From a virus (lineage: Duplodnaviria > Caudoviricetes): a stretch of DNA of 64,000 nt. Below the pieces are notes generated by a model, which made no database searches, was not told the DNA's origin, and worked only from the letters and a program-made list of their open reading frames with translations. The stretch's first letter is position 1, and every line of letters begins with the position of its first letter. This document shows positions 40,481 through 49,578 of this stretch, one piece after another. The stretch spans positions 21,677 to 85,676 of IMG/VR virus record IMGVR_UViG_3300021319_000137; one strand, 5' to 3'. A program made the position numbers and the translations under genes.

Positions 40481-42214
40481 ATGAACCTTATTAAACAACC
40501 TGCCAACGACTGGGAGCCCGTGGCTAAAACCATTACACAAATAACAGTGGCCAAAACAATGCAAGATTACAGCCGGGGAAAAAAAGAATACCTGAGTAAT
40601 AAAGACTTTACCGAGGATGCTATAATACTTGGTGGCTCGTCAACAATAGGCACTCTAGGGCATGTAGGGCATGGAAAAACAACTTTGACAGCAGCTATAA
40701 CTACTATTCTTGCAAAAGATGGTTGCATTTTATCGGATAAAGATTGTTCATATGATAAAATCGATAATGCCATCAAGGAGCATATCGGAAGTATGCCGAT
40801 TAATTACTACCATATAGAATACAGGACAGAGAATCGTTTTTTTTCTCATTTTGACTGCCCAGAGCATGCAGACTATGTAAAATGTTTAGTTTCTGGAACA
40901 ATTCAGTTAGATGGTGCTATCGTGGTTGTTGCTGCTACCGACGGTGTTATGCCACAGACCCGTGAGCATATCCTGCTTGCCCGTCAGGTGAACGTTCCCC
41001 GTCTAGTTATCTTCTTGAACATGTGTGACTCCCCCGATGTTGATGACGAGATGATCAAACTTGTAGAGAAGGACGTTCGTGACTTGTTGAGCGAGTATGA
41101 GTTCGACAGTGACAACACCCCCATCATCAAGGGTTCGGCACTGGGTGCCCTCCAGGGTGAGCCCAAGTGGGAAGACACCGTTCGCGAGCTGATGAACGCC
41201 GTTGACGAGTGGATGCCCCAACGCCCAAAATACTATAATAATCCTTTTGTGATGCCCATCGAGGACGTCTTCCACATTACAGGCCGTGGCTCCGTTGCTA
41301 CTGGTCGTATTGCGTCTGGTGGCGTTAAAGTTGGCGACGAGGTTCAGATTAGGGGTTTGGATAATGATTCGATGACATCGGTGGTTGTAGGTATTGAAAT
41401 GTTCCGAAGGCTTTTCGAAGAAGCTGAGGTCGGAGACAATGTAGGCTTGTTGCTTCATGGCATAGACCCCGATACAATCAAACATGGAATGGTTGTATGC
41501 AACCCGGACGTTTTACCCCATGAGTACTTTAAGGCTTCAGTTTATGTCTTGATGCAGGAAGAGGGTGGCAGCCAAACTCCGTTCCACAACCACTATCGTC
41601 CCCAGTTCAACATCCGCACCATTGATGTTAACGGTGAGATCATACTTCCTGCTGGTGTAGAAATGGTCAAGCCTGGAGATATTGTTGAAATCTATGTCAA
41701 GCTGATTTCACCAATAGTTTTTAGCGAAGGTATGTGTTTCGCAGTACAAGAAGGTAATTGCACGGTAGGCTTGGGCCATATCACTGGCATGCTTGATGCG
41801 GAGGAGTATTCAAATTATATTAACGAACACGAGAACTATGTTGCTCCCGAAGTTAATGACGAAGAGGAAGATGTTGGGCATGACTTTGAGCAAACAACCG
41901 AGCTTGCTAAGGATGAGCAAGAGTATCTTGAGGCGTTGAAGGAATTCCTGGAAGAGGGCGAAATTAGTGACCGGGAACGACGAATGCTTGATAGAGTGCG
42001 TAAATCACTAGGCATCAGTGAACATCGAGCTGCCGAACTGGAGACATCGCTAAAAACACCTCAGCTTACCGAGGATGAGCAAGAATATCTCGACATGTAT
42101 CGTGAATATGCCGAGGAGGGTGAAATTACCGAGAAGGTACGCAAACGTCTCGATCGCTTTGCTTCAGCAATAGGCATATCGCCCAAAAGAATGAACGAAT
42201 TAGAAACAATGTAA
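40481..42214 (+). CDS. Degenerate EF-Tu paralog fused to two C-terminal TerB/DjlA-N-like helical repeats
   Basis: [32 protein letters not shown] and domains II/III recognisable. RGITI is replaced by IGSMPI, DCPGH by DCPEH and NKxD by NMCD. ~130-aa C-terminal extension. Confidence 0.9.
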
Positions 42215-42227
42215 TAACATAAACTGA

Positions 42228-43232
42228 ATGGAAAAGAAAACATTAAAACAATTGTTCGAGAGCCAGCGCGACGTGTTGGCTCAGAGACTTGAAGGAATGA
42301 AGCTGCCCAAGGATGCCGAGAAGGCCCAAATCGTGGTTTCGAACTATCTCAATGAGTTATTTGATGGTGATGGTGAATTCCGGCAGAACCTCACGCAGTC
42401 AGAAGATTACATCCTTCAGGCAGCGATGTCGCTCCTCAATGCACAGCAATCGATGATTGCGCCGCTGGCCAAGGTGGAAATACAACAAGAGCCCAACGCC
42501 ACAATTGAAGACGAACCTGTAATGGGGGAACCCATAGACACGGCAAACACAAAGAGTTCTCTGGATGGAATAGCCCAACACATCAGACGTGAACAGTATC
42601 CAATGGTGATTGGTGGCTCGGCTATCGGCAGTGCCGCAGGTGCCCTGATCATGGGATCGTGGGGAGCTGTGTTTGGTGCTATCGCTGGGACAGCCTTGGT
42701 GCTCTATGCATCAGCTCAGTCGTCAAGTGCCAAAAACGCCAAAAGCAGTCAGCCCAAGTTGCAGGTACGTCCCCAGCAAAGGCCTCAAGCTCGCATGAGC
42801 AAGATTGTAGAGACCCCAATCGACACGAGTCTGTTCATGACAATCGTAAGCAACATCTGCGACAGCGTTGACTCACTGATTGCTACATTCCGAGCACAAA
42901 TTAACCGCGTGGTTGACAAGTACGAGAGTCAAGAAAAACTCCCAATAGAAGCAGAGTATCCTGCACTGTTAGAGAATATCCAAGCCTTACTTGGTGTTGC
43001 TGCGGGCGATTCAGATCCAGATACGCGTCAAAAAAGAATCGAAAAGCGCATTGAGATGTTGGCTGATAGTCTCGAAAACTATGATCTAAGAGCCGTTAAC
43101 TATGATGGTAATAACGCAATGTATTTTGCGATGCAACCATCACCGAATGTAAGCAAAGATACAATGGTAGCACCCGCTTTGTTAAGAGGGGATCGCGTAG
43201 TGATGAAAGGAAAAGTCTTTACTAAACAATAA
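42228..43232 (+). CDS. Glycine-zipper membrane protein with GrpE-like C-terminal beta domain
   Basis: GGSAIGSAAGALIMGSWGAVFGAIAG; coiled coil; C-terminal TMVAPALLRGDRVVMKGKV. Confidence 0.65.
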   Translation: MEKKTLKQLFESQRDVLAQRLEGMKLPKDAEKAQIVVSNYLNELFDGDGEFRQNLTQSEDYILQAAMSLLNAQQSMIAPLAKVEIQQEPNATIEDEPVMGEPIDTANTKSSLDGIAQHIRREQYPMVIGGSAIGSAAGALIMGSWGAVFGAIAGTALVLYASAQSSSAKNAKSSQPKLQVRPQQRPQARMSKIVETPIDTSLFMTIVSNICDSVDSLIATFRAQINRVVDKYESQEKLPIEAEYPALLENIQALLGVAAGDSDPDTRQKRIEKRIEMLADSLENYDLRAVNYDGNNAMYFAMQPSPNVSKDTMVAPALLRGDRVVMKGKVFTKQ

Positions 43233-43247
43233 AATAAAGCAATAACA

Positions 43248-49087: not shown

Positions 49088-49092
49088 CGACT

Positions 49093-49335
49093 ATGGCACA
49101 GTTTACGTTAACTGCTCGTAATAATATCGATCGTCCTGGCTGTCACATCTCGCGTGGTACCACGTTTGATATCAACATCAACATAATGGGAATCACCCCG
49201 AATAACCTGTTCAATAACCCACGCTGCGCTGATCAACTGGCGCGACAGTTTAAAATCAACGGAATTGATCTGCCCATGACAGACCGTGGTGTGTATAATA
49301 AAGGGGCGTGGGATATCCAGATGACCAGCCGATGA
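49093..49335 (+). CDS. Small protein (80 aa)
   Basis: Tight operon packing. Confidence 0.65.
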   Translation: MAQFTLTARNNIDRPGCHISRGTTFDININIMGITPNNLFNNPRCADQLARQFKINGIDLPMTDRGVYNKGAWDIQMTSR

Positions 49336-49362
49336 ATAAACAAACATTAATACGTTAGTAAT

Positions 49363-49578
49363 ATGGTACGAGGAACAACTTTATTCAAGTGCACAGAGTG
49401 TGGAAACCAGTTCAAGGCTCCTGACATCGAATGGATGGGGACAACAATGAGTGTGCCGCAACCGTGTCCCAAGTGTCACAGCATTAGGACTCGCCCGTCA
49501 AGGCTTAGCTCAATCACCTCCTGTGATGCCGTCTACGAAAAGATCTGGCAGGAAATCGACGAAAACAGCGAGGGCTGA
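49363..49578 (+). CDS. Zinc-ribbon protein (71 aa)
   Basis: CTECG...CPKC. Confidence 0.7.
   Translation: MVRGTTLFKCTECGNQFKAPDIEWMGTTMSVPQPCPKCHSIRTRPSRLSSITSCDAVYEKIWQEIDENSEG

Follow-up and report, generated by a model that had tools for sequence, protein, structure and literature searches.

An operon of Hsp70-like, HerA-like and zincin genes as a putative modular conflict system of mobile Bacteroidales islands

The closest described counterparts of the operon reported here are conflict systems centred on nucleoside triphosphatases (NTPases). In Sir2-HerA and DUF4297-HerA, a HerA-clade ATPase is encoded beside an effector gene. The DO-GTPase and GAP1-N2 neighbourhoods of Kaur et al. 2020 (PMC7159879) join a constant NTPase core to highly variable modules, include HSP70 and GrpE and frequently show membrane proximity, and inactive host-like domains have been proposed to serve as decoys in NTPase-gated conflict systems (PMC7159879). 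Among the components of extended Type III-A CoCoNuT operons are Hsp70-like, HerA-like and glycine-zipper elements (PMC11090510). The stretch analysed here (the window) comprises 64,000 nucleotides, positions 21,677 to 85,676 of the IMG/VR record IMGVR_UViG_3300021319_000137, and carries an operon of eight genes, g1 to g8. We rate it as an undescribed member of the known class of NTPase-centred conflict systems. From comparative sequence analysis, we estimate a probability of about 0.55 that it is a modular conflict system on mobile Bacteroidales islands, most likely of an anti-phage, abortive-infection or membrane-surveillance type. This reading is based on its patchy distribution, its mobile and defence-related context, nuclease fusions, TIR domains on relatives of g3, and the recombination of its modules.

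A preliminary description of this DNA had listed eight co-directional genes with gaps below about 30 bp. All eight open reading frames (ORFs) were retrieved on the + strand between 40481 and 49578, the successive gaps being 13, 15, -8 (overlap), 11, -1 (overlap), 5 and 27 nt:

40481..42214, + strand: g1, three-domain EF-Tu paralogue (aa 55-438) with a C-terminal tail of two repeats of ~47 aa (aa 439-577, 139 aa)
42228..43232, + strand: g2, N-terminal helical domain, glycine-zipper membrane hairpin (124-166) and C-terminal GrpE-like domain (~187-334)
43248..45194, + strand: g3, nucleotide-binding domain (NBD) of Hsp70/actin fold (aa ~15-390), helical region, glycine-zipper hairpin (528-562) and helical tail
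45187..47958, + strand: g4, domain without family (1-280), Gly/Ala-rich membrane segment (284-341), middle domain and HerA/FtsK-type P-loop ATPase (~530-923)
47970..48803, + strand: g5, helical N-terminal region and zincin metallopeptidase domain (HEGRH 200-204, E256)
48803..49087, + strand: g6, helical protein of 94 aa, translationally coupled to g5 (ATGA overlap)
49093..49335, + strand: g7, protein of 80 aa of no known family
49363..49578, + strand: g8, zinc-ribbon protein of 71 aa (Pfam Zn_ribbon_8 E 8e-6, below cut-off)

Anti-phage HerA models of PADLOC and NCBIfam match the ATPase domain of g4, and its nearest PDB sequences are solved defence HerAs. In contrast to Sir2-HerA and DUF4297-HerA, g4 has an N-terminal extension of ~520 aa that includes a membrane segment, its scores against these models remain well short of the curated cut-offs, and its partners are Hsp70-like, GrpE-like and zincin proteins instead of Sir2 or DUF4297. 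The systems of Kaur et al. differ in that the variable part is here a tail-tagged copy of a host protein, that the core is HerA-like, Hsp70-like and zincin, and that the hosts are gut Bacteroidales. No DO-GTPase or GAP1-type family was found in Pfam scans of g1 to g8, where the sole GTPase is the EF-Tu paralogue. An identity with extended Type III-A CoCoNuT (PMC11090510) was rejected, as no McrB/McrC, vWA, CARF or HEPN is present in the operon. Eleos (LeoA/LeoBC) resembles it in its membrane-associated NTPases, in a weak PADLOC LeoB/LeoBC match confined to the tail of g3 and in a Lactococcus neighbourhood of g4-like and dynamin genes described below, but a dynamin GTPase domain is absent from the window and the NTPase here has an Hsp70 fold. 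Type VII (EssC/EccC) and type IV coupling-protein ATPases are likewise membrane-anchored members of the FtsK/HerA superfamily with helpers and a protease; here, however, other secretion components and an outer-membrane part are missing and the ATPase domain is nearest to HerA. Pfam families for WXG100/LXG substrates or EssB/EsaA-type partners were found neither in g1 to g8 nor in the survey of flanking genes.

The gene set had not been recognised as a named system, and a lack of PADLOC system matches had been predicted; both points were borne out. Among the models of PADLOC-DB v2.0.0, only generic HerA models on g4, the weak LeoB on the g3 tail and PDC-S48 on the g1 tail gave matches, and g2, g5, g6, g7 and g8 gave none. 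The literature search on the gene set brought up only CoCoNuT and Aravind-lab conflict-system papers, with different cores, and no description of this one.

A conserved core of two recombining modules

The survey covered 42 genome loci, nearly all from Bacteroidales, and two metagenome loci, i.e. 44 loci. The genes g2 to g6 are together and in the same order in 38 of them, and contig ends cut three of the six loci where this set is incomplete. Taken singly, g6 is present in 40 loci and g7 in 27, g8 is sporadic (11 loci, often further downstream), and any piece of g1 is found in only eight, about a fifth. The conserved unit is therefore g2-g6, with or without g7, and is smaller than eight genes. 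The preliminary description, which had proposed an eight-gene system and a comparison of synteny with and without the EF-Tu fusion, was thus right about a conserved operon and wrong about its extent: the full set occurs only in one resolvase-linked lineage (L064, L065). The distribution is patchy, with g4 detected at E 1e-50 in a single one of 401 evenly sampled Bacteroidales species genomes.

Within this core, two groups of genes have distinct histories. Correlations between distance matrices are high within g2-g3-g4 (r = 0.79-0.86) and for g5-g6 (r = 0.76), versus 0.28-0.63 across the two groups; those of g6 with g2-g4 are 0.28-0.59. Compared with the window, locus L006 has g2-g4 at 97-100% identity and g5 and g6 at 35-43%, while locus L008 has g5 and g6 at 80% and g2-g4 at 32-67%. 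Two co-evolving modules, g2-g4 (Module A) and g5-g6 (Module B), thus recombine, and the operon in the window is a mosaic. The core appears to be older than the Bacteroidales, since a metagenome locus of 35% GC (L050), probably of Firmicute origin, keeps g2-like, Hsp70-like (tandem-NBD), g4-like (43% identity) and g5-like genes. In this distant variant of the core, seen in L050/L051 (7080-17175; both metagenome contigs of 35% GC), the two tandem Hsp70-like NBDs are in one protein of 1040 aa, a MORN-repeat gene is present and the g5-like zincin is further downstream; in L051, a Cys-rich peptide of 82 aa adjoins a radical-SAM gene.

The products of Module A form an ATP-driven machine that three glycine-zipper hairpins anchor to the cytoplasmic membrane, on its inner face. 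It consists of an Hsp70-like ATPase (g3), a GrpE-like nucleotide-exchange factor dedicated to it (g2) and a HerA/FtsK-type ATPase (g4). The glycine-zipper segments that had been noticed in three proteins are those of g2, g3 and g4; the conserved glycines of g2 are G134, G138, G143, G150 and G154. The structure model of g2 (predicted local distance difference test, pLDDT, 78) gave GrpE entries at the head of both fold searches. Its C-terminal 148 residues align to T. thermophilus GrpE 3a6m_A with Z 8.3 (148 of 168 residues aligned), and 1dkg, 4ani, 9bls, 9a81 and 8gb3 are further GrpE entries among the matches. This likeness is one of fold only, as no sequence-profile match to GrpE was obtained with Pfam or NCBIfam at E 0.01, or with a profile of 32 homologues against the PDB at E 10. 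The family profile of g3 matches the NBDs of BiP and DnaK (E 2e-12), and its catalytic residues D23, K92, E165, D193-T198 and G339-G340 are invariant in 35 sequences. The canonical beta-sandwich substrate-binding domain and lid are missing: the Pfam HSP70 match spans aa 180-388 only, PDB matches end at ~aa 378, and in the C-terminal half the substrate-binding domain is replaced by a membrane hairpin and a helical tail. The g3 family comprises 924 representative clusters. Some distant relatives carry an N-terminal TIR domain (L049 509-2926, proteins P0231 and P0268), and the L049 gene apparently stands alone.

The ATPase g4, recorded earlier as HerA/FtsK-like, scores above the cut-off for Pfam DUF87 (PF01935; 27.1 bits against 23.2), and its Walker A (GSGKT) and Walker B (IEEAH) motifs are invariant across homologues. 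In the PDB it matches HerA 4d2i (E 3e-7), and it is nearer to HerA than to FtsK or EssC; as a HerA-type ATPase it is presumably hexameric. The best NCBIfam match of the ATPase domain is CedD, with 74 bits, far below the cut-off. Ser/Thr/Gly-rich linkers flank the membrane segment, and an Atlas search with the N-terminal half returned unnamed clusters only. Identity of g4 across loci is 60-70%, and its family comprises 1289 clusters at E <=0.001.

In Module B, g5 had been described as an HExxH zincin, and this was confirmed: H200, E201, H204 and the downstream E256 are invariant in 32 homologues, and the top structural matches of its model (pLDDT 89) are all zincins. The nearest folds are PprI/IrrE (Z 7.5), SPRTN (7.1) and CapP (6.6) over 110-120 residues, scores that are middling and tied. 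The ImmA/IrrE/CapP and SprT/SPRTN zincins are thus the best fold matches of the catalytic domain, but sequence similarity is only sub-threshold, Pfam DUF3920, DUF6782 and SprT-like being matched below cut-off in 21-29 of 32 members, and a g5 sequence profile, like that of g2, found no relatives among solved structures. In the known IrrE/CapP-type cases, the small adjacent partner is the substrate (CapH, DdrO). The present family differs in that no helix-turn-helix motif is detectable in g6 and that g5 is intra-operonic and can carry nucleases. Homologues of g5 range from minimal zincins of 200 aa to forms of 470-570 aa, the long forms having N-terminal WHH/colicin-DNase or Endonuclease_NS_2 domains. 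The nuclease-zincin fusion of L015 is accompanied by no dedicated extra gene, and g6 and g7 do not track the nucleases as dedicated immunity genes would. In L001, the region 3' of a nuclease-type core operon (14505-19502) contains a string of small genes including DUF1232, SprT-like, PLD and NlpC/P60 genes; a 166-aa ORF of this string has a weak Tubulin/FtsZ match (E 1e-4) and is possibly another host-like fragment. The BAG domain of BAG-1 is the best PDB match of the g6 profile (32 homologues), at a non-significant E of 0.012 over 35 residues. BAG-1 is an Hsp70 nucleotide-exchange factor; the likeness of g6 to its BAG domain is unproven. Among the small proteins g6 to g8, a recognisable feature was seen in g8 alone, its zinc ribbon.

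The exchangeable g1 cassette and the structured leader

The first gene is an accessory, swappable cassette and is not part of the conserved core. Its product shares 71% identity with a housekeeping EF-Tu, that of a Sodaliphilus genome, and scores above the cut-off of NCBIfam NF009373 (504.6 bits against 452) and below that of the equivalog model TIGR00485 (500.6 bits against 522.4). The GTPase motifs are degenerate: the P-loop is GHVGHGKT, switch I has GSMPI in place of RGITI, and further motifs read DCPEH and NMCD, so that G1-G4 and switch I are not intact. The resemblance of three operon proteins to EF-Tu, the DnaK NBD and GrpE, claimed at the outset, is thus retained, for GrpE at the level of fold.

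Near-identical operons differ in what stands at this position. In L052, within the same frame of resolvase, leader and operon, the head is a 4Fe-4S ferredoxin; in L006 it is a Zn-ribbon/Gly-zipper/ACP-like head (ACP, acyl carrier protein), and in L064 and L065 it is again EF-Tu. A search with the g1 tail retrieved at least 143 proteins. The heads found on such tails are EF-Tu, EF-Tu domain II, ACP, the L7/L12 C-terminal domain, ferredoxin, Sel1 repeats, zinc ribbons and domains without family. The common feature of this family is a constant C-terminal tail carrying copies of abundant host proteins, and a host origin is clear for the EF-Tu heads, for the ACP heads, whether or not they have the serine, and for that of the L7/L12 C-terminal domain. 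The ACP heads keep the phosphopantetheine serine or have aspartate in its place; EF-Tu domain II is elsewhere encoded by separate small genes or fused to g3. Most tail proteins contain a split Zn-ribbon with an inserted glycine-zipper hairpin as membrane anchor, which has been lost from g1 of the window. No remnant of such a decayed Zn-ribbon/Gly-zipper module was detected 5' of g1, where it was sought, the only trace being a short AKTMQ-like one inside g1. Some tail-bearing proteins stand alone, away from the g2-g6 core. One of them (protein P0349 of L054, 9001-10986; 661 aa) has a g1-type tail and no recognisable head, lies without the core next to DUF6140 and Schlafen/AlbA_2 genes, and therefore suggests that the tail family also works outside the operon. 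The tail itself gives weak Pfam matches to TerB (PF05099, E 0.35) and ENT (E 0.032), and its Atlas neighbours are TerB/ENT clusters at 0.87-0.90; this TerB-likeness is only a lead.

The Lit protease of e14 cleaves EF-Tu when the T4 Gol peptide is bound, and it works alone. The present operon similarly brings an HExxH metalloprotease and EF-Tu into one putative defence context, and the segment targeted by Lit (RGITI) is rewritten in g1 and its relatives. However, EF-Tu is here an encoded paralogue that is absent from most loci, and Peptidase_U49 (Lit) was matched neither by g5 nor by its 31 homologues at E 0.1.

One Bacteroidetes promoter and a structured leader had been proposed to precede g1, and both were recovered:

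40151-40158, + strand: promoter-like Bacteroidetes-type -7 box TAAATTTG, seen in the sequence
40140..40480, + strand: this box and a structured leader of ~320-340 nt, from folding and covariation

Folding of 40140-40480 gave a minimum free energy z-score of -8.19, and an Rfam search of the leader returned nothing above noise. Homologues of the leader directly precede the first gene of the operon in six further loci (L052, L006, L035, L041, L009 and L015). In the alignment of seven sequences, 86% of the paired cells are filled by pairs, versus 40-49% when partners are slid, and 35 of 89 pairs show compensatory changes, versus 8-16 when slid, a contrast that is somewhat inflated because the structure was derived from this same alignment. 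None of 500 shuffles equalled the observed covariation values. Because the 3' end of the leader forms a terminator-like hairpin with a U-run directly before the start codon of g1, we suggest control of expression by attenuation or by a riboswitch-like mechanism; expression would then probably be gated by the leader and its terminator. A further copy, in L008 (14614-14962, - strand), precedes an unrelated gene of 357 aa on the opposite strand, and the leader may for this reason be a general cis-regulatory element of these islands. It is a separate candidate for a new class of cis-regulatory RNA.

Mobile context and neighbouring genes

The region around the operon contains the following other features:

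39027..39961, + strand: resolvase unit, serine recombinase (238 aa) and 73-aa ORF just upstream (Pfam Resolvase E 3e-27)
28006-31718: Gabija-like pair, AAA_15 and OLD-type TOPRIM protein followed by a UvrD helicase

The source record is an IMG/VR 'provirus' of 85.7 kb. At about 28 kb the GC content of the window drops, from a phage-like part (1-28000, 50-60% GC) to the lower-GC region with the operon (28000-64000). Alongside the operon, the low-GC part contains the Gabija-like pair, which agrees with the cargo island carrying Gabija of the preliminary description, two ATPase_2 paralogues, a resolvase, an integrase and a relaxase. The operon region is probably a mobile island separate from the phage-like part, because it has a lower GC content and its own resolvase, integrase and relaxase. 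A terminator-like hairpin (40004-40027) closes the resolvase unit upstream of the operon promoter, and the pair of recombinase and 73-aa ORF is also 5' of the operon in L052, L064 and L065. The paralogous ATPase_2/AAA_14-type genes (32446-33996 and 49822-51339, both on the - strand) bracket a block comprising a DUF3871 gene, the resolvase and the operon. That the operon could be a set of phage genes was considered and rejected because of its near absence from virus and phage collections: only one other IMG/VR contig carries it, full-length matches are absent from 50,697 phage records, and the 'provirus' label refers to an adjoining mobile island.

The flanks of the 42 genome loci contain genes for Sel1 proteins, AAA_14/DUF4143 proteins, resolvases and bpMoxR, and WYL and AbiE genes adjoin some loci. 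About 20 of 140 flanking proteins have PADLOC matches (PDC-S01, PDC-M09A, PDC-S27, Bunzi BnzB, WYL, AbiEii, JukA, DRT and mad2). Defence genes make up an estimated ~1.5% of bacterial genes, according to a review (PMC13434031). The flanks would thus be enriched in defence-like genes, an indication only because many of the PADLOC models matched are unvalidated candidates.

Relatives of g4 are found in other company as well. In Acinetobacter, a g4-like ATPase adjoins a WYL gene. On the Lactococcus cremoris plasmid pB26B (L061, 374-9157), a g4-like ATPase of 1076 aa is part of a co-directional block, together with two dynamin-family genes, an HNH endonuclease, a 125-aa gene and two small paralogues, of which one has a Gly-zipper tail; the block is possibly an extended Eleos-like system. 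On the Anabaena cylindrica plasmid pANACY.04 (L060, 904-12525), an Hsp70-family gene, a GUN4 gene and a membrane-anchored GTPase accompany a g4-like DUF87 ATPase, which is 38% identical to g4 over its full length and is the only gene in common with the window. Such pairings of g4-like ATPases with dynamin-family or other GTPases, on Lactococcus and cyanobacterial plasmids, hint at a wider superfamily of membrane NTPase systems.

Alternative explanations and biological meaning

A membrane-associated defence or conflict system had been proposed from the outset. The membrane association is supported and the hallmarks of conflict systems are present, the function itself being inferred from them. 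As we see it, Module A would act as sensor and switch and would license the output, which Module B (g5-g6, usually with g7) would provide through an IrrE/SprT-like zinc protease with a small partner. Several points weigh against a conflict role. Beyond a generic HerA, the core matches no PADLOC defence model, the PADLOC matches in the flanks are largely unvalidated PDC candidates and generic ATPases, and many loci sit among housekeeping genes. The assignments of GrpE and of the zincin subfamily are model-based and depend on middling fold scores (Z 7-8). The link between baits and core is not obligate, since some tail-bearing proteins have no core nearby. Finally, a membrane FtsK/HerA ATPase, a chaperone and a protease would equally make up the parts list of a machine for translocation of protein or DNA.

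An export or toxin-delivery machine for interbacterial antagonism is the form in which this last point can be developed: g4 would be the motor, like EssC or a type IV coupling protein, the Hsp70/GrpE-like pair would unfold or escort the cargo, and the zincin would process it, the cargo being nuclease-zincin fusions, small proteins or tail-bearing proteins. The three membrane hairpins and a pumping-type ATPase would suit such a machine, as would the colicin-DNase/WHH and EndoNS domains on g5 homologues, which are typical of polymorphic toxins, the small constant proteins encoded after the toxin-like gene, and the L001 string with its SprT-like, PLD and NlpC/P60 genes. We nevertheless consider it unlikely. 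The operon is without signal peptides, outer-membrane component or WXG100-like family; the nuclease domains are N-terminal to a constant zincin, which is the reverse of the polymorphic-toxin layout; and variation of the nuclease is not accompanied by variation of g6 and g7, as it would be for immunity genes. Secretion of copies of EF-Tu, ACP and L7/L12 would have no obvious use, and the TIR fusions in relatives point to intracellular immunity.

Other functions can also be envisaged. The operon could be a stress system for membrane repair or remodelling that senses no particular invader, a dynamin-like analogue that would maintain the integrity of the envelope, may incidentally delay phage lysis and for which the g1-type proteins would be clients or regulators. 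This would be in line with the membrane tethering of all three large proteins (g2, g3 and g4), with the LeoB/LeoBC (dynamin-like Eleos) match of the g3 tail, weak as it is, and with the presence of g4-like ATPases next to two dynamin-family genes on pB26B and a membrane GTPase on pANACY.04. Yet the system is too rare and patchy for housekeeping, and an arms race is indicated by nuclease and TIR fusions, by the recombination of modules and by the swapping of heads, which makes this proposal very unlikely in our view. We give as little credit to a function for the mobile element itself (DNA transfer, entry exclusion, or maintenance/addiction), where g4 would be a membrane DNA translocase and DNA-protein complexes would be the targets of the zincin and the nucleases. 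In one lineage the operon does travel with resolvase, integrase, ERF and relaxase genes, CedD is a DNA-translocating ATPase, albeit matched far below cut-off, and PprI, SPRTN and CapP, the nearest folds of g5, are DNA-activated proteases. But most loci are without transfer genes and in varied chromosomal contexts, no conserved relaxase or mating-pair genes accompany the core, and phage and viral collections hardly contain the system.

If the operon is a conflict system, as we favour, the part played by the g1-type cassette has to be explained. The preliminary description had seen the host-mimic modules in general as sensors or decoys. The decoy idea fits g1; it does not fit g2 and g3, which are constant machinery, with intact catalytic residues in the Hsp70-like protein. 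The head copies could be baits that are bound or modified by proteins of an invader, coupling recognition to the core. We propose this because of the proposal of decoys in conflict systems (PMC7159879) and because of the sensing of phage through EF-Tu by Lit and Avs7, which use EF-Tu domains II-III in sensing a phage capsid protein (PMC13581612). By analogy, the heads would be exchangeable integrated decoys: the membrane Hsp70-like/HerA/zincin machine would read host copies displayed on tails, binding or modification by an invader would trigger it, and a swap of the head would change which invader is sensed. This part of the model is tentative and we regard it as rather doubtful at present; it would be new in kind. 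In plant immune receptors of the nucleotide-binding leucine-rich repeat (NLR) type, integrated decoys are likewise copies of host targets that are joined to an immune-type module and swapped from allele to allele. The comparison is an analogy without a claim of homology, and a bacterial precedent was not found in the papers searched.

As a defence system, the operon would represent a new multi-gene architecture, in which an Hsp70-like ATPase with a private GrpE-like factor is combined with an IrrE/SprT-like protease and a membrane HerA. With the tail-tagged copies of EF-Tu, L7/L12, ACP and ferredoxin, the idea of decoys or baits would become directly testable in bacteria, and the natural head swaps in near-identical operons could serve as controls. 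The host group, Bacteroidales, is abundant in gut and rumen, and few defence mechanisms have been tested there. Should the decoy reading be true, these islands would provide a prokaryotic counterpart of NLR integrated decoys, together with a new chaperone-type switch and a new leader RNA.

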